Shown piece by piece: positions 2,990 through 64,000 of a stretch of DNA of 64,000 nt. Source of the DNA: Liolophura sinensis (lineage: Eukaryota); NCBI RefSeq assembly GCF_032854445.1, contig NC_088304.1, forward strand, positions 22,425,513 through 22,489,512, given 5' to 3'. How positions within the stretch are numbered: position 1 is the stretch's first letter; every line of letters begins with the position of its first letter. Under the pieces are notes generated by a model, which was given only the letters and a program-made list of their open reading frames with translations, ran no database searches and was not told the origin of the DNA. The position numbers and the translations under genes are program-made.

Positions 2990-3389
2990 CTGCAAAAACA
3001 GATGCACTATGCTTTCAAAAACAATCTGGTTCAAATTTTTCACCAAAGTTCATTTTAAACTTCTTCCCAAAAAAAGCCCAGTTTAAGTCTATGATTATGA
3101 CATGAACAGAGCAAATGGGATTCCAGAAAACGAAAAAATGTATAAACGTCAAATACACCTTTTCCAGCCGCTTTATGCAGACATCGTATTAATAAAAACA
3201 ATACAGAGTCACCATGGAAACTGATACATTATAACATTGTAGACGCTGTGCTATGTTCAATAAATTTATCATGTAACCATGGCTTGATGTCAGACTTCAC
3301 CCTACTGCAACCTCACGGGATTAAACAATATTCTGCCTCTCCATTCTTCTTCCCATTTCCCAAGCATGCACTTCTTCCTCTTAATGTTT

Positions 3390-4795
3390 TTGTGTTATTA
3401 ATCATCGATTTCCTGTTGTTTCATGTTTGCTTTTGTGTTATTAATCACCGATTTCCAGTCGTTTCACATTTGCTTTTGTGTTATTAATCACCGATTTCCT
3501 GTCATTTCATGTTTGATTTTGTGTTATTAATCACCGATTTCCAGTCGTTTCACGTTTGATTTTGTGTTATTAATCATCGATTTCCTGTTGCTTCACGATT
3601 GCTTTTGTGTTATTAATCACCGATTTCCAGTCATTTCACGTTTGCTTTTGTGTTATTAATCACCGATTTCCAGTCGTTTCACGTTTGCTTTTGTGTTATT
3701 AATCACCGATTTCCTGTTGTTTCATGTTTGCTTTTGTGTTACTAATCACCGATTTCCTGTCATTTCACGTTGGCTTTTGTGTTATTAATCACTGATTTCC
3801 AGTCGTTTCACGTTTGCTTTTGTGTTATTAATCACCGATTTCCTGTCATTTCATGTTTGATTTTGTGTTATTAATCACCGATTTCCTGTTGTTTCATGTT
3901 TGCTTTTGTGTTATTAATCACCGATTTCCAGTCGTTTCACGTTTGCTTTTGTGTTATTAATCACCGATTTCCAGTCGTTTCACGTTTGCGTTTGTGTTAT
4001 TAATCATCAATTTCCTGTTGTTTCACGTTTGATTTTGTGTTATTAATCACCGATTTCCAGTCATTTCACGTTTGCTTTTGTGTTATTAATCACCGATTTC
4101 CAGTCGTTTCACGTTTGCTTTTGTGTTATTAATCACCGATTTCCAGTCGTTTCACGTTTGCTTTTGTGTTATTAATCACCGATTTCCTGTCATTTCATGT
4201 TTGCTTTTGTGTTATTAATCACCGATTTCCAGTCATTTCACGTTTGCTTTTGTGTTATTAATCACCGATTTCCAGTCGTTTCACGTTTGCTTTTGTGTTA
4301 TTAATCACCGATTTCCAGTCGTTTCACGTTTGCTTTTGTGTTATTAATCACCGATTTCCTGTCATTTCATGTTTGATTTTGTGTTATTAATCACCGATTT
4401 CCAGTCGTTTCACGTTTGCTTTTGTGTTATTAATCACCGATTTCCTGTCATTTCATGTTTGATTTTGTGTTATTAATCACCGATTTCCAGTCGTTTCACG
4501 TTTGCTTTTGTGTTATTAATCACTGATTTCCAGTCGTTTCACGTTTGCTTTTGTGTTATTAATCACCGATTTCCTGTTGTTTCATGTTTGCTTTTGTGTT
4601 ATTAATCACCGATTTCCAGTCGTTTCACGTTTGCTTTTGTGTTATTAATCACCGATTTCCTGTTGTTCCACGTTTGCTTTTGTGTTATTAATCACCGATT
4701 TCCAGTCGTTTCACGTTTGATTTTGTGTTATTAATCACCGCTTTCCAGTCGTGTCACGTTTGCTTTTGTGTTATTCATCTCTGATTTCCAATCTT
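3390..4795. repeat. 43-bp minisatellite of about 33 units (TTTTGTGTTATTAATCACCGATTTCCAGTCGTTTCACGTTTGC, with CCTGTCATTTCATG and CCTGTTGTTTCATG variants), in an intron of the tandem-SAM gene.
   Basis: direct head-to-tail repetition seen in the sequence. Confidence 0.9.
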
Positions 4796-4848
4796 TTCTC
4801 CCATTGCTGACAAAACTTACTGTTAGAGACACAGGTCTACAGACTTAC

Positions 4849-5284
4849 TTGGGTCTGGGTGGAGGGGTGTCCTGCACACAGTGGTTTTTGCGGTAGATGT
4901 TGGTTCTCCGTGGGGAAGACCGCTGTATGGCATGTTTTGGCTGCTCTGTCAGACTGGGTGAGGACTCCTCAGGCTGAGATGATGCCAGCGTGTCTGTGGA
5001 TCCATCCATCTGACCGGCCGACCCCAGATTCCCCACGAACAGCGTGCTGGTTGAACCTGTAAACGAACTATTCAGCGTTCCTGTGGACCCACTCATCAAA
5101 CTCCCACTAAAACTCTGCTCCAGTGCAGCCACCTGGAGGGCTGCGATGTATTTCTGACGGTCAGCATCGGTCTGTATTTTCTCCAGGTCATTCTCCTGGC
5201 TGCTGATTGGCTCAGGGTTCTGGAGTCTATAAATAGTGGAGAGAAGAGCTTCCCGGGCCTCTGTGTCAAACCCCTCCAGATGAT
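4849..5284 (-). CDS. Tandem-SAM protein exon 8 (SAM2 C-terminal segment plus a Ser/Thr/Pro-rich linker ...TPPPRPK).
   Basis: Part of ORF 4845..5300(-). Acceptor ttgtattcag| and donor CCAA|gtaagt (phase 2). Confidence 0.7.
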
Positions 5285-5593
5285 CTGAATACAATAACAT
5301 CCCGAATGTTAAAGTCTTCAGTCTTTACACAGTATGATATATAATCTGTGAAACATCTTAGTCATAAAAACAGATAAAAACTCACAAGGCTGTTCTACTT
5401 CACTTCCTCCATGCCATCAGTGAGTTCCTGAATATAAACCTGAACCCATTATATTTGTCAAGCAACTTAACACTGAAGTCATTTATTGTAAGAGCTTATT
5501 AAGAAAGCCAAACTCAGAAGAGGAAAGAACTCAGATTGTAGCTCGTACATCGATGTGTAGTAAAGAATCAGGATACAAAGTTTAAGTATCATA

Positions 5594-12448: not shown

Positions 12449-13663
12449 CTGGAATATCAATAACAATTGGCATTACCAATCTCCAGTGAACCACAAACGT
12501 GTGCAAAACTGCAAACTTCTGTGCACAGTTCACATGTACGTACATGTATTTATATACACTGTCATTCCTACAGACAGAAGCCCTATGATAAGACAATAGG
12601 GGAGAAGTTCAATACATAGCCAGCAGGTCAGCTTCATGTAAGAGGCTATTACCTGATCATACTGTGATTAGACAGGTATTCAGGCTTAGGGTGAACAAAA
12701 TCCTTTTCTTTATGTGTCATGGGCTTTATTATCATCATCAAAAAAAACATGCCCTGTGTATGTAAAGTTTTTAAATCATTACATACTGGATTAAGGAGGG
12801 AAGATACATGTGCATATAATAATGTTTTGAGACATTTTAAGGCCTGTCACTCAAAGTCTTACAATTTACCTTTTAGTGAAAAAAGAAAATAATTCAGCCT
12901 ATAATTAAACATTATTCTTTATGCACTTGTCCACATCTTTATTTTCTTTTGAATTCATTGATGTAGGACTTTAAAAAAAACATTGAAAAAAGCTTTTAAA
13001 AAATGTTCAGCCTGTAAAAAACACTCTTTTAGAAACTCATAAAGACCTTAAGTAAATATTTTTGATGCCACCATTGAAAGTTTCTGATAAGAAATTGATC
13101 ACACGTCATACAAAATAAGTCTTCAGTGGAGGACGAATCAATACCAATCAAGCAGGATATGTCGGTTTTAAGAATACATTGTATTCATTTCACAGCCTAG
13201 AGCAGTTAATGAAGAGCGTAGAGAATATATTATTTTCTCAATAAAAATTCTGATGCTCCTCAATTAAGATCGGGTCATTCCAAGTCAAATCAGCCCCCCA
13301 AAAATTTTTTTTTGTGGTGACCCTCTTGGATTTTCCTGAAAAAATTCCTTGACATATCTGAGGAAAGTTTCCCAAGTTACAGCCCCAAATTCGAAGTGGT
13401 TTTTGAGATATGAGTATCTAAAAATAATAAAATATAACAAACAATTATTTAGGAGCCTAAAATTGGGAATATTTGCACGATACAACGTTATCTTTGTGAC
13501 ATGTATAATGTGACCTGGGCACACTTTGAGGTTATAATTTTTACTTTGAGCTCTCAAAAATGAGTGAATGACCACACATTCTGACCCTTGTGAAAGTTGT
13601 CCTTTGACCATACGTTGAATTAGTCCTTAACTTTAGCAGGATTAAAAGTGGGAGCACACTCAC

Positions 13664-14342
13664 TGTGGAAGATCTTTGGCAGTTTGTTTATGCCCAATCC
13701 CTTGCTCCACTCGACGACGTCCTCCGTGCTCCAATACTCTGTTGGTTTGAACCTCCAATTTCTGCTTGTCAATGCGCTATCCACTGACCCTACGTTCCTC
13801 ATTTCTTGCAGGTCTGAACCCCGATGACCAGTTGCTTCTCCATCTTTGTCAAGAGTGCCACGTCGTAATGTTGGACTGGGTGTATCAAACACATCGCTGT
13901 CTGTGCTGGTTTCGGAGAAGCGCCGCCCTGGCATATACCGCTGTGACAAGCTGCGAACAGATGGCAGCGATGACACTGAGCCGCTGTCGCTGAGTGACAC
14001 ATCGGCACTATGTCCTTTGTCAGAACTGATCGATCTAAGAGGACGACGCGGCTTGGCTTTTATCGGCGGCTTTCCTGACCGTTCAGATAACCGCCTCACT
14101 GACTTGTTCTCCGAAGGATCTTCTTCTCCGTCAGTAAGCGCATGCCGGGTGTTATCAGAGGAGTGACGAGGGCTGTCACTGACACTGGAACTCTTCACTG
14201 GAAGTGTGCATGACGCTGAGTTGCTCAACCGTCCTACAGCCTTGTGTGAATTGTTACCATCATCTGATTTCTCCTGTAGGAACAGTCGCTCTTTGCTTTT
14301 CTTTGGAGACAGCTTGTGCAGTCTGGAGATGAATGCAGACAT
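13664..14342 (-). CDS. Tandem-SAM-domain protein, coding exon 1: Ser-rich N-terminus plus the first segment of SAM1 (...EYWSTEDVVEWSKGLGINKLPKIFH). The ATG is at 14342 and the donor is GTGAGT (phase 1).
   Basis: This is the 5' part of ORF 13620..14393(-). It carries the SAM signature W-S-T-E-D-V-x-x-W. The donor is CA|GTGAGT. The ATG has a Kozak-like context gagaccATGt. The gene may have unseen 5' exons. Confidence 0.6.
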
Positions 14343-17300
14343 GGTCTCACCTTCCCATACATCACAGTCCTTCACAACATCACAGTCCTTCACAACATCG
14401 TTCCATTATGTTCTGCATCTGCACATGAACATTTACATTAAAAATACTACAATGGTTCCTACAAATACTAACATTCAAAGTTACAGTTTTTAGGATGGCC
14501 CCAAACCAACATAAGAGCTCGCTTCATTTAAAAACCGGATGCGGTTACCTGCCCTTGTCAAATATGTCTTGGCTGTCAATACAGCTGTTTGCTCTAAGCA
14601 TCAGCAAGGAATCTCGGACCAATGCGGTTTAGGAAATAACAAGTTGACCTTGTGCTTACGATAAATACACAGACAAAAAGATAAGGAACATAAGCGTATA
14701 CAAACTTAAGGCTGTGGAGACGTATTTCATAGATAATTTTTTGTCTCAAATGCGGTGACACACTGCCACCGCAACTGCATTAGGCTATTAAATGGAGCAC
14801 GCTCTGACATTGGTTTGGGGCAATCCATGGCCAAACAAAATTTCACCAAAACTAACGTCAGAGCAATCTCGAACTTGTTTCACAGTGAATGGTATTCCTA
14901 TTTGTTGAGGCTTCTTCACAGATCTCCTTGGCATTTTATCATTTTTACTGTTTTTACAGTAGGCCTATAAAAGTTGAACATAGGTTCAACCATGCTAATT
15001 TGATGAATGGAAAAGATCACATTACACAGCAATGATTTCACCAGTTAAACTTTGATGATGTTTTTTTTTTTTTTGTTTTTTTTTCACATCCAGCATTCAC
15101 TGACCAAATAAATATCAGCGGGGGAAATGAGGGAAGACGTATCTTTCTTGCTAATTACAGACATGATGAGACTATGAAATCAGGCTGTTTCTTCCATGTT
15201 GTACCTTTCTTATCTATTTATTTTATCCAACACTTCATTACAATATGAGGCTTTCCTTCATCCATCACTTCTGTCCTGGCTTTCAGTAGAATGGGGTGTC
15301 TCAAAGACACTAACACACCTAAGTCCATCCAGAATGTCAGAAATTTAAAACAGCACACTGAGTCTATACGCTACAATGTTGAATGTCAGAATTTTAAAAC
15401 GGGCCATCAAGTCCATTTATCTTGTTGGACAGTAACATTATACGAACACAATCTATATGCCGCAGCCAAGCAGATTGGAAACCTGTACATCAGAGAAGAG
15501 TTGAAAACTGATTTTCTAGTGTTAATTAAAGCCCTTGTTAAATCATGCAGGCTTACCTGCTGAACTCAGACCATACATTCGCTAAGCCTGTCGTCTTTAA
15601 TCTGATTTGAATAGGACCAAACTAATTTACGTAGGCTTAAACAATGTTCGAAGAGCATTTTTCTCATTTCTAATTAAATTACAACATGTTCTCTTATTCA
15701 GATTCTTTTTAACAACCACAGTGAACAATCCACATGTTAAAACGCCTTTCATTTTACACTCTTTATTCGTTACTTTAAGCTTTAACATCTTTCTCGCAAG
15801 TTGCCTCCGTTGTTGTTGTAACGAAGAATTTCAGGAACGGGTTAACTGGCTGACAGCTGTCACTTCGTTTGACTTTACTGTGACAGGTCAAAAAGCTTTA
15901 GAAATATCGTGCAGATGCAGATGCTTTTAGGCCACTTACCATTAAAGATTTGGCGTGCATTTGAACAAACTTCAAGGACCACGGCGACACCTTATTCTAA
16001 ATATAGAAACAAGCGTGAAAATGTAAATTAAATTCTCGCATTTCCGGATTGGAAGGGGAGATGATACCACGTCAAAGTTATCCGAGTTGCGTCCCTTTGC
16101 TGAGCAGATGCCCGACACAAAATTTGTTTGATATTATTCATCATGTATACCTTACCTATCGTTTTCATTTTTCCTGCAGCGCAGCCTGGTTGGAAACGAT
16201 CTTTTAGGCACGATATGGTTACATGTAGCCTATTTGTTATGTGGGCCTATTGAGCCCCGTTGTTAAATCTGACCTGTGGAAACAGTAATAAATACAATGG
16301 GTGTTTCAACTACCGCGCCTTTCATACTCAACACCTGGATTGTCTTTATTCCCCATGGGATCAATTTGTTACAGCATAGTGCTTCTCTTTATTCAGCATA
16401 ATTTATTTATTTCATTGTTGTATAATGCCATATTCATGAATTTCTCAATAATATCATGCTTGTCAGTTTTATGGGTTGCGGAAACTGGAGTGGTCGGAGT
16501 GAACCACATTTGGGAGTTTTCTCACGTGATGTAGATATACGCACGAGCTGAAGACAATACAAGCAGATATGAGCAGATATACAAGCGCCCTCACAATCAG
16601 TGAGTCATTTTAATTATTTTGGTAGCATCATAACCAGCGCTTTCATACCAGGTCTGCCATGTCCACGTTAAAACAACTTTATTCTGAATCCAGTCATTTT
16701 CGAATTCCTTCACCTGGATTTTCGGCCAAGTCAACACTGTTGTCAACACAGTCACGTCAGGCGAAATCAGGCTACGGCGCAGGATCTGCAGGTGATTGAA
16801 CTGATGCCTATTCACGTGCCATTTTTTAATTGAATTCATGTTGAGAAGCAGGATTTCACGTTAAATGAACTATATCCCCCTGGCAGACAATAGAGGAAAC
16901 CTCACAGGTTAATCCTTCACAATCAAATGCAGCAGCATATTATCTTATTATCCATGTTGTGTTTTGTTTAGGCCATGTTCATCTATTCATGGAAAAATAT
17001 AGAGTTTCGCTTTACACATAAAAGTACATCATACTTTTTTAAGCTATTGCAGGACAACGGCAAATATTTCAACCTTTCACATTAAGAAGAAAGATACCAT
17101 TACATCGCAGATTTGACCCTTACCAAATAGTTGGCCTCTATATAAATACCGTTTTGTGCAGTGCATTGTCCATGCCCTTCCTTCCAGTATTTCTCTGATA
17201 TTTGGATGGCTATGGCCTCCTTGTGCACAAGTAACTCATAAACATAGCACTAGCATAATATGAAATGTCATTGCCGCACAATTTCAACTCAGAGAAGCAT

Positions 17301-17833
17301 AGAAACAGTAATGGTGAATTTGCAGGTTTTGTTTAAAATGAATTGATAGATCAGATGCAGATACATGTATTTACAAAATGGAATCGAAATGGGAATATCA
17401 AGGTTCTCACTCTACTTCCCGGTTCCTTTGCAAGGTTACTATTTATATCACAGGTACTTCAAATGTGAGGACAACACTTCTAGACTACTGCCGTATAGTA
17501 TATTCTGCTCAAGCCATGGGCCTAGGGGCTTGCAAGTTGCTACTAATTAAGCATTTACATGAAATTAGACTAAAACTCCAAGGTAAATTGACAAGAAGTC
17601 TTGTCTAAAAAAATCTAGTGCAATCTGTCTAATACGCACATAGAAAATATCAAATCCACAATGTTACTGCTTCACTACCAGTTTTATTTCACAAGAAAAA
17701 ACAATTGCAAACTACAACCACAAAATAGCCATGATTAAAGGAGATGAGAGCTTTTTGTGGTCAAAATCTGGTCGAAACAGCTTGGACTGGTGATGATCAT
17801 ATATTAACATATATATATATATTTATGGAAAGT

Positions 17834-17839
17834 TTTATT
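17834..17839 (-). terminator. XBP1: Candidate XBP1 polyadenylation signal (AATAAA on the minus strand).
   Basis: AATAAA lies about 48 nt after the XBP1s stop codon. Confidence 0.4.
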
Positions 17840-17886
17840 TACACACATATGATTTTCAGTCATAAAAAGTTTCAAGGCAGCGTTTT

Positions 17887-18588
17887 TCACAGAAGATCTG
17901 GGAAAAGATCTGTGAAGGAGTCTTCCCACGGGTCATCTCCAAGAGCTGGAGTCATATTGCTGCAGGGAGAGTCTACATCACTGCTGGAGTCACTGAAACC
18001 TGAATCAGTGCAGGACACAGACAATGGGGATAAAGCCATTACAGATTGAGAAAAAGATCCAAGAGACTGTTCAGGAGACAAAGCACTTGTGTACTCTATC
18101 TCGGGTATGTCAGCGAGTACAAACTTCTGTTGAGTACTGTTCGGTTTTTCTGATTTCACCACAATTGTCTCCCCTTGTGAAACATTACTGGTTTTCTCCT
18201 TTGGTTCAGCAGGGACGGCCTGCATTAAGAGAGTCTCTAAATCTTCCAGAACCAGGTCACTGGTTTCCATTGGAATTTCGTTTTCTTGTTTGCACAGTGA
18301 ATTCATGTCACATTGAATTGTGTCCTCTTTCACACATTCCGTCTCCTGTTTGACCAAGGTCACAGGTGTACCACTCTGCGTCTTGTAATACACATGGTCA
18401 AATTTGATCAGTTCTTTGACGGATTCCAGCTCCTCTGTTGAGGGCCCCACCACTTCAGGCTGCGTGCTGATGACCGTCTCACTGGGGACAAATCCAGAGG
18501 TGCAATCTGCTCCCAGTTTTGAGTCTCCAGGTTTTTCTTGGCTTGCTTCATCTGTGATTTGCTGGAGCAAGCTAAGCAAAAAGTCAGA
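17887..18588 (-). CDS. XBP1: XBP1 exon 3, read in the XBP1s frame (transactivation domain ...LESVKELIKFDHVYYK...DPWEDSFTDLFPDLL*).
   Basis: ORF 17887..18579(-). Acceptor ccatttcag|. The C-terminus matches human XBP1s (LEAINELIRFDHIYTK ... SWEDTFANELFPQLISV). Confidence 0.85.
   Translation of the reverse strand, partial: SDFLLSLLQQITDEASQEKPGDSKLGADCTSGFVPSETVISTQPEVVGPSTEELESVKELIKFDHVYYKTQSGTPVTLVKQETECVKEDTIQCDMNSLCKQENEIPMETSDLVLEDLETLLMQAVPAEPKEKTSNVSQGETIVVKSEKPNSTQQKFVLADIPEIEYTSALSPEQSLGSFSQSVMALSPLSVSCTDSGFSDSSSDVDSPCSNMTPALGDDPWEDSFTDLFPDLL
18408..18588 (-). CDS. XBP1: XBP1 exon 3, read in the XBP1u frame (unspliced isoform C-terminus ...SLTFCLACSS...QQRSWNPSKN*).
   Basis: Part of ORF 18408..18635(-). 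It ends ...SWNPSKN (human XBP1u ends ...SWKPLMN). Confidence 0.75.
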
Positions 18589-19116
18589 CTGAAATGGAAA
18601 AAGAGAGGCAAATTAGAACAGGTTTCAACATTCAAGCAGATTATGTCTACATCAGTAATTTACAAATGCATCTGAAGATATCAAACCATACAGAAAATCA
18701 TCACAGAAAACACAAGACATGCTGATACTATTATATACACACTGCATGGACTGAACATACCAATACTCCAGCAGGACAAACAAATTTCACCTGGCACAGC
18801 AAAATATCCTTTTGCATTTTGGTGTCAGAATTGTATTTTAATTTTCAATTGAGAATGATCGAGTTCTAATAAATTGTTTGGCCCCTTCCTCCCAGATCCC
18901 TTAATATGAAACCTGGACCCTTTTTGACCAGTTTCTCATCTTTGAGACAACTCTGGGAATATTACTTGATCAAATGTCAGACTCCCCTTCTCAGGTGTGA
19001 AACAGATTATTCAATGAACAGACATGATATTCTCTACCATGTGAGCTGCTAGCTGATCCCTACATTATCCTATCCCAGTACATCCTGCATTTTAGAACTC
19101 TTGCACTTGCACGCAC

Positions 19117-19446
19117 CTCATTGTCAGCATGAAGCTCAGACAGTATGTCACCCAGTGGGAGAGAGCTTGAATCTGCTCCTGCTGCAGAGGAACGTTGAGT
19201 ACTGCTGACTCAGGGGATTCAAGCTCTTTCTTGGTGGGGACATGACTGCTGTCCAATTGGCCCAGGCGCTGTTTTAGTTCTTGGTTTTCTTCGGACAATC
19301 TGCCAGATTTGTTTTTCAGGCTGCTGTTCTCTTTCTGTAGCCTTCTGTTTTCTGCTTCTAGTTCAGCCACACGGAATTCAAGGTCTGTCATCAAGGCCTT
19401 TTTACGATCTCTTGCTGTTTGTGCGGCCACTCGGTTCTTCATTTTC
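19117..19446 (-). CDS. XBP1: XBP1 exon 2: bZIP basic region, leucine zipper and the IRE1-processed segment.
   Basis: Part of ORF 19092..19442(-), KNRVAAQTARDRKKA. Acceptor aaacag| and conventional donor AATGAG|gtgcgt. Confidence 0.85.
19185..19204 (-). other. XBP1: Predicted unconventional (IRE1/RtcB-processed) 20-nt XBP1 intron.
   Basis: The mRNA reads ...CCUGAGU[CAG|CAGU]ACUCAACGUUCCU[CUG|CAGC]AGGAG. It has two 7-nt loops (CAGCAGU and CUGCAGC) closed by stems UGAGU/ACUCA and UCCU/AGGA. Removal shifts the frame by +1 to give ...ESAAGA (human XBP1s reads ...ESAAGAG). Confidence 0.75.
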
Positions 19447-19943
19447 CTGTTTGAAATGAACAGATGGCAAATATAGAAAATAGATCAACACATTTTCTTG
19501 CTAAACATCTCACTCGAAAAATATTATATGTTTAAGTCTTACAAACTATACATTTCCTGTTCTGATTGCATCATATTCCTGTTTCGTTTGGCAGTTTTAT
19601 GAACTACCGGTATTGATTAAGCGGTTTGTTTGAAACAGATGGAGCAGTTTAATAAACTAGAGTTTCCCAAATTTGTTTCAAAATGGTTAATTTGTAGGCT
19701 ATATTTACAAACTAGACACACACATGGCACTTTTGGCAATCTACTGGAATGAAATCTAGAACAATAATAATCAAAGCCAGTTTACAAGTCTTCAGCCAAA
19801 AGCGGCCGATGTCACTTTTACACTGAATCCTGAAACGAAAGTTACCGAAACTTTTCAAATGTTTTTTACGGTGTGCGTCTTCACAAATCTTAACGACACC
19901 TTTTTTCGTCTAACCCTGGCTGATTTTCGGACTTTTGTCTTAC

Positions 19944-20107
19944 CTCCTCATGATTTTTTCGTCTTGAGAAAGGTGAGTGAGCCGCCGTCTTTTCCGTGGA
20001 GCCGTCTCCATGTCGCCGTCGGAGTTGTCAGACGACACAGACAAGCTGCTGGCAGGTCGGCGAACTGTCGTGATCACTATCGTTTTCGGGGTCAAATTAG
20101 TCGTCAT
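19944..20107 (-). CDS. XBP1: X-box binding protein 1 (XBP1) exon 1 (MTTNLTPK...APRKRRRLTHLSQDEKIMR-). The ATG is at 20107.
   Basis: It translates to RKRRRLTHLSQDEKIMRR, close to human RKRQRLTHLSPEEKALRR. The donor is GAG|gtaaga. Confidence 0.8.
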
Positions 20108-20257
20108 CTTGATCAGTTGTGTCTAAAGACAATTTCCACCTTGGAATCGACACACATCGGTGTTTCTGTCCCGTGAAAATTCGCTATTTGTCATCTCATC
20201 TTGCGTGTACTGCTTTTACTCTGCTGCATCTCTTTCGGAGCTTTCTGGATAAGCCAC

Positions 20258-20276
20258 CGTGGCACGTTCTGATTGG
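20258..20276 (-). promoter_or_regulatory. XBP1: ER stress response element (ERSE-I: CCAAT-N9-CCACG) in the XBP1 promoter.
   Basis: The minus strand reads CCAATcagaacgtgCCACG with an exact 9-nt spacer, about 150 bp upstream of the ATG. A CACGTGG/TGACGCA motif lies at 20288-20306. Confidence 0.55.
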
Positions 20277-21936
20277 TCGACCTGAATTGCGTCACAAACC
20301 ACGTGATAGTTAGTTGAACATGAGGCCACTTCTGGGTTACAAACTCTGTCATTTCCAGTAATATCTATTTCACAAAGTTTTACCTCATTATGCAACTAAA
20401 AAAGTCTTTTTTTTTCATATGTCCATAACAGTACAAATGCATTACAAAGTTTAAAATACAGTATTGTTAACTTAGTGAATGGGGCGAGGTTTTACTTCCT
20501 AGGTAAATTCTGATGCAACGTTGCAGTGTTAAAAATAGAATTGACGTCATTCGAACACGTTACACGCTGTCATATTTTAAGAAACGAAGTTGCACAGTGC
20601 ATGCCTGCAGACCAGCTTTCGGTTGATGCAATCTGTCATCTCCTGTATTCGATTAACAAGCAAGAAAGAAATCTAAATATTTGTGATTCACAGCTGCTGT
20701 ACATACACGGTGGTTGATTAGTGCAATTTGTAGTACCCTCAAAAAATAATGTATTAAATTCAAGTCTGTTTTCTGATTTATGCTAGCATGTATTATTACA
20801 GCAGATTAGCCTGTGAAATAAAGCATACCGTACATATTCTATTAATTCAACACGATGATTGTGTTAGAGTAACTTCATATTATGTTCATTTCATATAATA
20901 CACAGAATTACGTTCCAATAACAGAATACATTCTAGCATCACTCAGAAAACAAAATTTCTGGCAAAATTGGCGTATTATTTTTTTCCAATGTATGTTTTC
21001 TACGTAATTTTGAGATGTTTCCATATTCTATTCATGGAAAGACGTATTCTCCAACAGGAAGTGTAACATATATGCAACAATTGAAACAACATAACTAGTC
21101 AATTGTGGGAGATAAACTTCCAGTGCCAGTATTTAAATTTTAAAAAAAAATTCTTGGACTAGAGATACTGTTTCGAAAATTAGTGACTCGGGCGTCCAGA
21201 TGCCGTGTTAGGTGTTAGTATATTTTAAATGCATCATCAGGAGGTCCAAGAAAAAACTTCTAAATACATTGCCATAATAACTTAAACAGGGTCAAAAAGG
21301 AAAATAGATCACTGACGTGCCCCCCCCGCCTCCCGCCCCCCAGGAAAAAAAAAGAAACAAAAATGAACACAACAAAAACTTTCCGTCATATATGTAATTT
21401 TATTTTATTTTATTTTTTTTTTGTTTACCAGAAATTAACGCTGTATGTGTGGTAGTGATGGTCGGGGAGCGGGGTGGGGGCAACTATCACCGCACATAGG
21501 CGAGGGAACCTAGAAATGGGGTCTGGAGAGCACACGTGACATGCTACAAATGAAAGACTTTTCAAAGTTTACTCTCGCACATTAGCCGAGGATCCCCGGG
21601 CCGCTAATGCCCAGGAGTTTCTGCGACCTTAGATAGTCATAGACGTACATGTGTATTCTTGAGCCGTCATTCAAAGTTAAAGCACCGAGAGATGCGGTTT
21701 AAGGAGTAGAGAGCGGTTCAAAAAAAAAGGTTAAAAGATAAGATTAGAGTGGTCGCGAGCAAATCTGACATATATGGGCATCCACCACTGGAAATGGGAG
21801 TGACCTGCGCACAACAGAAAACGTATATATACGTCTCTGTCCAACTTGTATTTGTAATATATAATTTCAAGAGCGACATTATTTGTTTCTATGTGCATGG
21901 TTTTAATTGAAATGGCAGACAAACATATACTCTTTT

Positions 21937-41100: not shown

Positions 41101-41235
41101 AAATCATGTACCTGATGGCTCTTCCACCTACGTGACTGCCGGTATAAAATATGCTTGATTATGGTACATAACACAGATCAAGTCATTACAAACATCAGAC
41201 GGTAAAGATTCTTGATTGATTTGGTTTTTGTGCAG

Positions 41236-41571
41236 GAATCAGAGCTGGAAAGATTGACACGAGCCAGAGAGGCCGAGACAAAGTACCTGAAGGAACAGAA
41301 CGATCTTGAGCTGGAAAAGGCTAGGGAAATGGCCGACATCGAGACCGGCAAGTTCAAGGACATCGTGACCTCTATTGGTGCCGACACAATTCGTGCCATC
41401 GCAGTCTCCGGGCCTGAGATGCAGGTGAAGATGCTTGGTGCACTCGGACTTAAGTCCACGCTCATTACTGATGGCAGCAGCCCCATTAACCTATTCAACA
41501 CTGCCCAGGGGCTGATTGGGGGCATGGTGCCCAGCCGACGTAGGGCAGATGAATCTGACATTGATGAGTAA
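41236..41571 (+). CDS. MVP: MVP exon 14 (terminal; the stop codon TAA is at 41569-41571).
   Basis: [18 protein letters not shown]...[41 protein letters not shown]...*. The summed CDS is 2574 nt, which is 857 aa. Confidence 0.9.
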
Positions 41572-41997
41572 AACAAGACTCCCCCTACCTTGCATGCATT
41601 TCTTAAACTCGTTGTTCCTAAAAGAATTAATGCTTAATGTCAAAAAGCTTATATAAACATATTGTTTTGTTCATGTATGGACTTGAGGTACAGTGCTTAC
41701 TGCCGTATGTAAATTGTCATGCACACAAGATTGTGTCTTTTCCTGCCACACCTATTATAGAGGGTATGCACATCATCATCATATCTTAGAAGAACATCTT
41801 TGCGGCCATAATGGAGTGATATTGGCATACATCTATATAACAGTCTCCAGGAAGGCTGTCAAAAGTAGACCATGAAAGTTCTCTATACAGGTAGGAGTTG
41901 ATGACACTTTTCTGTGCGGTGATGAGAGAATGAAACTTTTTGGTAGTGTAGTGTACATGTTGTATATGATGTCTTTTGACGTTGTGTTTTTCTTGTA

Positions 41998-56320: not shown

Positions 56321-56629
56321 GGCGCCAAGCCAAGAAGAAGCCACGCAGTGTCTGTGTATATGTCACCGTGCCCACACTGTAGCAACACGGTTCACCGGGC
56401 TCGCGGCATTTCGGGGGTGTTCATTGAGTTCCGAGCAAGATCAACCATGACGTAATTTCTAAAAAAATCCAACCATTGGCGGAAAATATGCATAATATTA
56501 AGGGGTAATTTACAGGTATAAAAATACACCCAAAATCAAGTTTTTTTAACAAAAATTCCGTGGAATAATTTTGGCATAGAAACATAATCTTTGATTTATA
56601 GTTCCTTTACATGTATCCTTTAACAGTCT

Positions 56630-57950
56630 AATCGGCATTCACATACTTTTATGAGTGTACCAAAATCTCCCTGGCAATCACATATGTCTCGGGATAATAA
56701 AAGGTCTACTCGGCGTTTACATAATTTTTATGGGTGTACCAAAATCTCCTTGGCAATCACACATCTCTCAGGATAGAACAAGATCTACTTGGCGTTTACA
56801 TAATTTTATGGGTGTACCAAAATCTTCTTGGCAATCACACAACTCTCAGGATACAACAAGGTCTACTTGACATATGTCTCGGGATATAAAAAGGTCTACT
56901 CGGCGTTTACATAATTTTTATGGGTGTACCAAAATCTCCCTGGCAATCACACAACTCTCAGGATACAACAAGATCTACTTGACATATGTCTCGGGATATA
57001 AAAAGGTCTACTCGGCGTTTACATAATTTTATGGGTGTACCAAAATCTCCTTGGCAATCACACAACTCTCAGGATACAACAAGGTCTACTCGACATTCAT
57101 ATAATTTTATGGATGTACCAAAATCTCCCTGGCAATCACACAACTCTCAGGATACAACAAGGTCAACTCGACATTCACATAATTTTATGGGTGTACCAAA
57201 GTCTCCTTGGCAATCACACAACTCTCAGGATACAACAAGGTCTACTCGACATTCACATAATTTTATGGGTGTACCAAAATCTCCCTGGCAATCACACAAC
57301 TCTCAGGATACAACAAGGTCTATTCGGCATTCACATAATTTTATGGGTGTACCAAAGTCTCCTTGGCAATCACACAACTCTCAGGATACAACAAGGTCTA
57401 CTCGACATTCACATAATTTGATGCGTGTATCAAAATCTCCCTGGCAATCACACATCTCTCAGGATACAACAAGGTCTACTCGACATTCACATAATTTTAT
57501 GGATGTACCAAAATCTCCTTGGCAATCACACAACTCTCAGGATACAACAAGGTCTACTCGACATTCACATAATGTTATGGGTGTACCAAAATCTCCCTGG
57601 CAATCACACAACTCTCAGGATACAACAAGGTCTATTCGGAATTCACATAATTTTATGCGTGTATCAAAATCTCCCTGGCAATCACACATCTCTCAGGATA
57701 CAACAAGGTCTACTCGACATTCACATAATTTTATGGGTGTACCAAAATCTCCCTGGCAATCGCACATCTCTCAGGATACACCAATGTCTACTCGGCATTC
57801 ACATAATTTTGTGGATGTACCAAACTGTCCTTGGCAATCACACGTCTCTCAGGATACAACAAGGTCAACTCGGCAATCACATAATTATATGGGTGTAACA
57901 ATGTCTACTCCTCAGTCACACTCATGTACCTGTAAATATTAGGATTAATC
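56630..57950. repeat. 78-bp tandem array of about 17 units (…CGACATTCACATAATTTTATGGGTGTACCAAAATCTCCCTGGCAATCACACAACTCTCAGGATACAACAAGGTCTACT)
   Basis: Seen directly. Its period is a multiple of 3, so two forward frames stay open (ORFs 56986..57942, 57035..57421, 57425..57898). Confidence 0.9.
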
Positions 57951-62844: not shown

Positions 62845-64000
62845 GCATGGACATGCAAGAGCGCTGTGGACTGCTAACTTAATAGACTGGAGTGGGGACA
62901 CGACAGAGCGCTGTGGACTGCTAACTTAATAGACTGAAGTGAGGACACGACAGAGCGCTGTGGACTGCTAACTTAATAGACTGGAGTGAGGACACGACAG
63001 AGCGCTGTGGACTGCTAACTTAATAGACTGAAGTGAGGACACGACAGAGCGCTGTGGACTGCTAACTTAATAGACTGGAGTGAGGACACGACAGAGCGCT
63101 GTGGACTGCTAACTTAATAAACTGGAGTGGGGACACGAAAGAGCAATGTTGACTGCTAACTTAATAGACTCAAGTGAGGACACGACAGAGCGCTGTGGAC
63201 TGCTAACTTAATAGACTGGAGTGGGGACACGACAGAGCGCTGTGGACTGCTAACTTAATAGACTGGAGTGGGGACACGAAAGAGCGCTGTGGACTGCTAA
63301 CTTAATAAACTGGAGTGGGGACACGAAAGAGCAATGTTGACTGCTAACTTAATAGACTCAAGTGAGGACACGACAGAGCGCTGTGGACTGCTAACTTAAT
63401 AGACTCAAGTGAGGACACGACAGAGCGCTGTGGACTGCTAACTTAATAGACTGGAGTGGGGACACGACAGAGCGCTGTGGACTGCTAACTTAATAGACTG
63501 GAGTGGGGACACGACAGAGCGCTGTGGACTGCTAACTTGATAAACTGGAGTGGGGACACGAAAGAGCAATGTGGACTGCTAACTTAATAGACTGGAGTGG
63601 GGACACGACAGAGCGCTGTGGACTGCTAACTTAATAGACTCAAGTGAGGACACGACAGAGCGCTGTGGACTGCTAACTTAATAGACTGGAGTGGGGACAC
63701 GAAAGAGCGCTGTGGACTGCTAACTTAATAGACTCAAGTGAGGACACGAAAGAGCGCTGCGGACTGCTAACTTAATATACTGAAGTGAAGGCATGACCGA
63801 AAGAGCGCTGTGGACTGCTAACTTAATAGACTGAAGTGAAGGAATGATAGAAAAAGCGCTGTGGACTGCTAACTTAATAGACTGGAGTGGGGACACGACA
63901 GAGCGCTGTGGACTGCTAACTTAATAGACTGGAGTGGGGACACGACAGAGCGCAGTGGACTGCTAACTTAATAGACTCAAGTGAGGACACGACAGAGCGC
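62845..64000. repeat. 47-bp satellite (CGCTGTGGACTGCTAACTTAATAGACTGGAGTGGGGACACGACAGAG) of at least 24 units, running off the window end
   Basis: seen directly. Confidence 0.95.

Follow-up and report, generated by a model that had tools for sequence, protein, structure and literature searches.

Vertebrate XBP1 mRNA has an unconventional intron of 26 nt; in fly and worm its length is 23 nt. In human XBP1u, the product of the unspliced mRNA, a hydrophobic region and a translational arrest peptide deliver the mRNA to the ER membrane, and in the published picture of the reaction pairing between the exons holds the ends for ligation by RtcB. Vertebrate XBP1 promoters are known to contain an ER stress response element (ERSE), and transcription of XBP1 is induced by ER stress. 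The survey of Hooks and Griffiths-Jones 2011, which is said to stand behind the Rfam family of these introns (RF04247), may already report 20-nt introns in animals. Lengths below 23 nt have been described: the XBP1 intron of the cestode Mesocestoides corti is 17 nt long, as determined by DTT-induced RT-PCR, and Echinococcus and Schistosoma have kept this short intron (bioRxiv 10.1101/2025.03.04.641463), and a 20-nt class has long been known in fungal hacA (PMC6627864). A scallop study of 2026 says that it did not look at the splicing of XBP1, and the text of Zhang et al. 2016 gives no XBP1 intron length. In the literature searched we found nothing explicit on XBP1 splicing in molluscs or lophotrochozoans, no published splicing evidence for the Lingula, Mercenaria, Aplysia and Tubulanus sites discussed below and, Hooks and Griffiths-Jones 2011 aside, no explicit 20-nt XBP1 intron in an animal; in that literature, the 20-nt animal class has apparently never been experimentally verified or explicitly described.

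We analysed a window of 64,000 nt of DNA from Liolophura sinensis (contig NC_088304.1; "the window" means this whole stretch). It contains what is very probably a functional lophotrochozoan XBP1 gene, with a predicted excision of 20 nt by IRE1 that would convert the XBP1u form of the mRNA into the XBP1s form. Compared with vertebrate XBP1, the basic region KNRVAAQTARDRKK is identical, the C-terminus of XBP1s aligns to the last residues, and the gene shares the 7-nt loops that follow the CNG|CNGN rule (the bar marks the cut), an intron length of 2 mod 3, the junction peptide ESAAGA, and the motifs IRFDHxY and WEDxF..LFP.L. The differences are that the vertebrate inter-hairpin stretch is 6 nt longer (26 vs 20) and that the gene in the window has three coding exons. 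We take the motif W..Q.SW.P at the C-terminus of XBP1u to be common to human XBP1u and the window.

Four other lophotrochozoans, Lingula, Mercenaria, Aplysia and Tubulanus, have XBP1 genes that agree with the window in the 20-nt intron, its loop motifs and hairpin spacing, the closing helix, and the length and the termini of XBP1u. The XBP1u of the window is only 46-53% identical to that of each of them, about the distance between classes or phyla, suggesting that the lineage of the window is without a close annotated relative. XBP1 of the flatworm M. corti has the same double stem-loop and also an intron shorter than 23 nt and of 2 mod 3, but that intron is, at 17 nt, 3 nt shorter than the one in the window, and its excision is experimentally verified while the excision in the window is predicted. 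Fungal hacA/hac1 (Aspergillus niger, A. nidulans, Trichoderma reesei) has the same length of 20 nt and belongs to RF04247 as well (PMC6627864), but it is a distant orthologue whose protein is unlike that of the window outside the bZIP domain, and its translation is controlled by the 5' UTR and alternative start sites, with no XBP1u arrest peptide.

The XBP1 gene and its two predicted products

Exon boundaries were set by string matching and translation (Table 1). The N-terminus encoded by exon 1, MTTNLTPKTIVITT..., is alignable with lophotrochozoan XBP1; exon 2 contains the bZIP basic region, the leucine zipper and the unconventional intron; and exon 3 is open throughout in the XBP1s frame, down to the terminus ...DPWEDSFTDLFPDLL. 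The only close relative of the window's XBP1 that we found is an unannotated Logan contig (L001, protein P0001, from SRR26493808), which covers the end of intron 2 and exon 3 only, not the IRE1 site. The acceptor of intron 2 and the start of exon 3 are kept in this contig, and the exon 3 products of the two related species are 87% identical. Downstream of exon 3, we infer that the AATAAA hexamer serves as polyadenylation signal.

Table 1. Features of the XBP1 locus, with positions in the 64-kb window
Feature	Position	Strand	Description
ERSE (ER stress response element)	20258..20276	(-)	CCAATCAGAACGTGCCACG; fits CCAAT-N9-CCACG perfectly
XBP1 gene		(-)	compact, three coding exons (read over 17700-20400)
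XBP1 coding exon 1	19944..20107	(-)	ATG 20107-20105; followed by donor GTAAGA
XBP1 coding exon 2	19117..19446	(-)	acceptor TTTCAAACAG, donor GTGCGT
Whole RNA element	19161..19228	(-)	12-bp closing helix around two hairpins; Rfam RF04247, folding, covariation
5' hairpin	19196..19212	(-)	stem UGAGU/ACUCA (5 bp), loop CAGCAGU 19207-19201
3' hairpin	19175..19193	(-)	stem GUUCCU/AGGAGC (6 bp, one G-U), loop CUGCAGC 19187-19181
Unconventional intron (predicted)	19185..19204	(-)	20 nt, mRNA CAGTACTCAACGTTCCTCTG, DNA CAGUACUCAACGUUCCUCUG
Predicted spliced junction, 20 nt removed			GAGUCAG|CAGCAGGAG
Junction expected if 23 nt were removed			GAGUCAG|CAGGAG
Junction k-mers of the window, spliced and unspliced			CCCCTGAGTCAGCAGCAGGAGCAGATTC and CCCCTGAGTCAGCAGTACTCAACG
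Conventional intron 2 of XBP1	18589..19116	(-)	GTGCGT...TTTCAG, 528 nt
XBP1 coding exon 3	17887..18588	(-)	acceptor TTTCAG; TGA stop 17889-17887
End of XBP1u frame	18408..18452	(-)	C-terminal peptide WWGPQQRSWNPSKN, stop TGA 18410-18408
AATAAA, putative polyadenylation signal	17834..17839	(-)	about 50 nt past the stop codon; read from the sequence

Read as it stands, the mRNA encodes a complete XBP1u of 224 aa, and removal of the 20 nt gives a complete XBP1s of 391 aa. Both proteins carry the Pfam domains bZIP_1 (43-44 bits) and bZIP_2 (37 bits), and their basic region is invariant in the XBP1 alignment. The best database matches were X-box-binding protein 1 from molluscs (bivalves and gastropods), a brachiopod and a nemertean; the proteins of Branchiostoma and vertebrates came next. 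By BLASTP, XBP1s aligned with pig XBP1(S) (E=1e-34) from the basic region to the last residues, running through ...WEDSF-TDLFPDLL and covering the motifs that follow the junction, namely ESAAGA, SDxESDxLLxxL, L-E-x-(I/V)-x-E-(L/V)-I-(K/R)-F-D-H-V-Y and WEDxF..LFPxL.

An earlier note on this DNA, made from the sequence alone, had recognised XBP1 on the minus strand, and this identification held, with a bZIP carrying the basic region given above and both reading frames conserved. The translation that it gave for the excised mRNA, ...ESAAGADSSSLPLGDILSELHADNE|SDFLLSLL..., was reproduced; excision joins the bZIP region to the conserved C-terminus of XBP1s, as it had proposed, and the BLASTP comparison that it called for aligned the spliced isoform end-to-end with the pig protein. 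Two details had to be corrected. The frame shift had been given as +1, but a deletion of 20 nt is a shift of +2, i.e., -1. The frame after excision does enter the open reading frame of exon 3, as stated, but the start given for it, 18579, is merely the first TTG of a mechanical ORF, and the true exon 3 starts at 18588, after TTTCAG.

The XBP1u protein consists of the bZIP, a hydrophobic segment ALSHWVTYCLSFMLTMSLTFCLAC and the C-terminal peptide WWGPQQRSWNPSKN, which, following the work on human XBP1u, we take to be a putative translational arrest peptide. Residues W211, W212, G213, Q216, W219 and S222 do not vary in an alignment of 42 XBP1u proteins and, as judged from such sequence comparison, the unspliced XBP1u frame is also under constraint. 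A comparison of XBP1u with PDB sequences returned matches to the bZIP domain only, and an entry for the XBP1u arrest peptide was not found there.

The ERSE lies 151 nt upstream of the XBP1 ATG and is the single match obtained when both strands of the 64 kb are searched; from shuffles, 0.03 would be expected. The Ixodes XBP1 model also has a perfect ERSE upstream, and the Aplysia model a near-match (CCACA). By analogy with vertebrate XBP1 promoters, we presume that the element of the window is a putative ATF6/NF-Y/XBP1-responsive promoter element; a single ERSE upstream of the ATG fits the known induction of XBP1 transcription by ER stress, and through it ER stress may also raise transcription of the gene in L. 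sinensis.

Two further observations concern the transcript. The 5' leader contains a three-codon upstream ORF (AUG AGA UGA; 20196-20188, minus strand) about 80 nt before the main AUG. Within intron 2, the stretch 18648-18710 on the minus strand gave sub-threshold matches to C/D-box snoRNAs (snoMe28S-Gm3255, 24.9 bits vs a gathering score of 44, E=7; SNORD18, 17.9 bits), and has a UGAUGA box near its 5' end and CUGA near its 3' end; it could be an intron-hosted snoRNA or a chance match.

The twin-hairpin RNA element and its conservation

In exon 2, the minus-strand mRNA reads CCUGAGU CAG|CAGU ACUCA ACGUUCCU CUG|CAGC AGGAGCAG or, divided into its segments, CCUGAGU-CAG|CAGU-ACUCA-AC-GUUCCU-CUG|CAGC-AGGAGC. 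The IRE1 cuts are predicted between G19205 and C19204 in the 5' hairpin and between G19185 and C19184 in the 3' hairpin, and only 2 unpaired nucleotides separate the two hairpins in the 20-nt class. Around both of them we found a perfect 12-bp closing helix, AGAGCUUGAAUC/GAUUCAAGCUCU, pairing 19227-19216 with 19173-19162, which was absent from the earlier note. The element matches RF04247 (bZIP non-canonical Hac1/Xbp1 intron) over the full model, positions 1-72, with 47.5 bits, the gathering score being 41; the E-value was 2.2e-07 when 4 kb were scanned and 3.5e-06 for the window as a whole. RF04247 is the only Rfam family that reaches threshold anywhere in the 64 kb. As in the members of this family, there are two 7-nt loops of the consensus CNG|CNGN with the splice site after the G of loop position 3, the base helix (12 bp) pairs the exon flanks and brings both sites together, bZIP_1/bZIP_2 lies upstream of the site, and excision changes the C-terminal frame (20 = 2 mod 3).

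A scan for twin hairpins, defined as a pair of CNGCNGN loops that lie 14-32 nt apart, each on a stem of 4 bp or more, returned one site in 128 kb (both strands of the window) and none in 200 shuffled windows. RNAfold of the element gave a z of -2.55 vs dinucleotide shuffles. The canonical fold with two 7-nt loops has -26.3 kcal/mol vs -26.8 kcal/mol for the minimum free energy (MFE) fold, a gap of 0.5 kcal/mol, and the MFE fold adds one internal pair to the first loop. Sequence, Rfam and folding agree on the twin hairpins with the motifs CAG|CAGU and CUG|CAGC in stem-closed 7-nt loops that had been proposed, and the 20-nt segment between the cuts had been placed correctly to the base. The folding check suggested for the two 7-nt loops came out with essentially the same structure, apart from the extra pair that the MFE fold draws in loop 1.

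We then compared the structure with that of relatives carrying a 20-nt site, whose 55 distinct sequences align without gaps. With the structure of the window as reference, hence a structure taken from one of the aligned sequences, 76% of the cells were standard pairs vs 64% in column shuffles, and controls in which the partners were slid by 1-3 columns gave 35-47%. Changes on both sides (compensatory) were seen at 22 of the 23 pairs. The 5' hairpin stem was 90% paired, with such changes at all five of its pairs, and the 3' hairpin stem 88% paired; since the sequences had been selected by the motif and at least 3 stem pairs, the constancy of the loop bases is circular, and so is some of this inner-stem pairing. 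The closing helix, which was not used in choosing the sequences, showed compensatory changes at 12 of 12 pairs and 65% pairing in fixed register, a codon indel being present in some sequences.

Intron length among animals and alternative readings of the site

To survey the length of the intron, XBP1 loci of named species were reached via annotated proteins, and 80 XBP1-like contigs from metagenome and metatranscriptome collections were added, with 3 further metatranscriptome contigs. Sites were called by the motif CNG[C/A]NGN with at least 3 stem pairs, with an Rfam cross-check on a subset. The genomes of the brachiopod Lingula anatina, the bivalve Mercenaria mercenaria, the gastropod Aplysia californica and the nemertean Tubulanus polymorphus each have a 20-nt site, and the intron of Branchiostoma belcheri XBP1 is 26 nt long. 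Over the 88 sequences with a site (the window included), which are enriched for relatives of the window so that the frequencies are not animal-wide, 67 had an intron of 20 nt; the other lengths were 23 nt (10 sequences), 17 nt (6), 26 nt (3) and 29 nt (1). The environmental contig L009 has a 20-nt intron identical to that of the window. No twin-hairpin site was found in contig L073, and neither Rfam nor the motif scan gave a convincing one in the stretch of the Ixodes locus (L091) examined. In mRNA-like contigs of relatives, excision opens a long frame that ends in W-E-E-S-F-x-E-L-F-P and the unspliced frame ends in WWGPxQxSWNPSxN, suggesting that the dual-frame logic works with 20 nt in many species.

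The other lengths in the survey included twin-hairpin introns of 17 nt with almost abutting hairpins in six environmental XBP1 mRNA contigs (L014, L055, L057, L061, L064 and L066), the length reported for parasitic flatworms, and the 29-nt intron of contig L045. Excision in the 17-nt contigs and in L045 restores a frame ending in ...SFxELFPxL.

A 20-nt intron had been called unusually short in the earlier note, and one could read the site as a genuine IRE1 target whose length is a rare shortening of this lineage, exceptional among animals. The textbook lengths of 26 nt (vertebrates) and 23 nt (fly and worm), the 26 nt of Branchiostoma and a searched literature in which an explicit 20-nt animal XBP1 intron was not found would speak for this. 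However, 20 nt is also the length in the four lophotrochozoan genomes named above and, among the 88 sequences, in 67, of which 55 are distinct, and introns of 17 nt are experimentally verified in a cestode, conserved in Echinococcus and Schistosoma and present in six environmental contigs. We consider this reading extremely improbable; for lophotrochozoans it is, on the sequences surveyed, already refuted, and the sequences indicate that 20 nt is the normal length in this branch. The position of the 3' cut has its own alternative, as CUGCAGCAGG holds two overlapping CNG|CNG motifs. If the cut fell one CAG later (CAG|CAGG, 19182/19181), the intron would be 23 nt long, which is also 2 mod 3, and the protein would keep its frame and be one residue shorter. 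This would place the cut between loop positions 6 and 7 instead of after position 3, while the Rfam alignment sets the loop on CUGCAGC, and relatives of the same geometry, such as L009 with its identical 20-nt intron, carry CUG|CCGC, without a second motif. Loop geometry and homologues led us to reject the 23-nt intron, which we regard as highly unlikely.

The hairpins might also be an unprocessed relic in a pseudogene or silent copy, an idea that could draw on the fact that the protein collection searched contains no annotated entry from the source genome. Nevertheless, neither of the overlapping frames, of 224 and 391 codons, is interrupted, and both have their conserved terminal motifs; the splice sites, the ERSE and the AATAAA are all intact, and the exon 3 protein is 87% identical in a related species. 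Since two intact overlapping frames, intact signals and this level of identity coincide, we give a pseudogene hardly any credence, and a functional XBP1 gene with a 20-nt intron is the reading that we retain.

Predicted splicing, annotation and neighbouring sequence

Under this reading, the unspliced mRNA would be translated into XBP1u, whose C-terminal peptide, by analogy with human XBP1u, would pause translation and bring the mRNA to the ER membrane. Upon ER stress the RNase of IRE1 would cut after the G at loop position 3 in both hairpins (19205|19204 and 19185|19184). Held by the closing helix of 12 bp and some 5 additional pairs (CCCUG with CAGG.G), the exon halves would stay together; the duplex predicted for the cut halves has -23.5 kcal/mol, and the excised 20-mer has no stable structure by computation. 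This predicted duplex would match the published picture of exon pairing for RtcB ligation. RtcB would then join the exon halves with the loss of the 20 nt, and the frame would move by -1 (= +2) into XBP1s, which would combine the same bZIP domain with the conserved activation domain.

From the sequence and the structural modelling we infer that exactly the nucleotides 19185-19204 would be excised in L. sinensis. An already spliced XBP1s mRNA, encoding 433 aa, was present as metatranscriptome contig L089 (JGI 3300019055, Ga0193208_10034273). Its junction, GAGUCUG|CAGCAGGAAC, is as expected under the rule for L031 and L045, its relatives with introns of 26 and 29 nt, to which it is 65-69% identical in nucleotides. 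In a search among the contigs for spliced mRNA with a 20-nt excision, the only clearly spliced one was L089, of the 26/29-nt clade. Being from another clade, L089 is evidence for the junction rule, not for a 20-nt excision.

The way in which XBP1 is represented in databases deserves a comment. Some deposited lophotrochozoan models are XBP1u only. Others are hybrids, among them P0002 (Saccostrea), P0004 (Tegillarca), P0017 (Lottia), P0008 (Bulinus), P0005 (Batillaria) and P0003, which read through the unconventional intron (e.g., ...SAASFVSLPQG...) and then reach the C-terminal XBP1s frame by another splice, presumably an artificial one. The longer proteins of Lymnaea, Bulinus and Batillaria were considered as true spliced forms and rejected as annotation hybrids. 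Many vertebrate XBP1 entries are flagged LOW QUALITY PROTEIN. Evidently, annotation pipelines cannot represent the IRE1 intron.

Elsewhere in the window, positions 41212-41571 on the plus strand hold an open exon for the C-terminal part of major vault protein, 60-78% identical to many fragments, a part of which bear the name major vault protein, and the long antisense ORF opposite to it, at 41178-41576, is probably a shadow of the vault exon. On the same strand as XBP1 and downstream of it are serine-rich open stretches at 13620-14393 (257 aa) and 4845-5300 (151 aa), which are presumably exons of neighbouring genes. Tandem arrays occupy 3388-4798 (43 nt x 33 copies), 56626-57901 (78 nt x 16.5) and 62858-64000 (47 nt x 24), the last of them running past the end of the window. 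The 78-nt array gives rise to a mechanical ORF of 318 aa made of 26-residue repeats (56986-57942), which is probably not a gene.

In conclusion, the XBP1 of the window is an ordinary, intact member of its family, with an RNA element already covered by the curated family RF04247. With its exact coordinates, a correct pair of XBP1u and XBP1s can be annotated, and an RT-PCR assay for a 20-nt shift under ER stress can be designed. The survey result that 20 nt is usual in lophotrochozoans provides a useful background; it extends a known family and does not describe a new mechanism. As a tentative scheme, about which we are more doubtful than confident, the length of the intron may fall into classes that follow the clades in steps of whole codons, so that chordates would have 26 nt (Branchiostoma, plus a vertebrate-like contig of the survey), ecdysozoans 23 nt (according to the literature), molluscs, brachiopods and nemerteans 20 nt, and flatworms 17 nt. 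If these classes were true, the window would be one more data point for a sparsely documented rule on the packing limit of IRE1's two cleavage sites.
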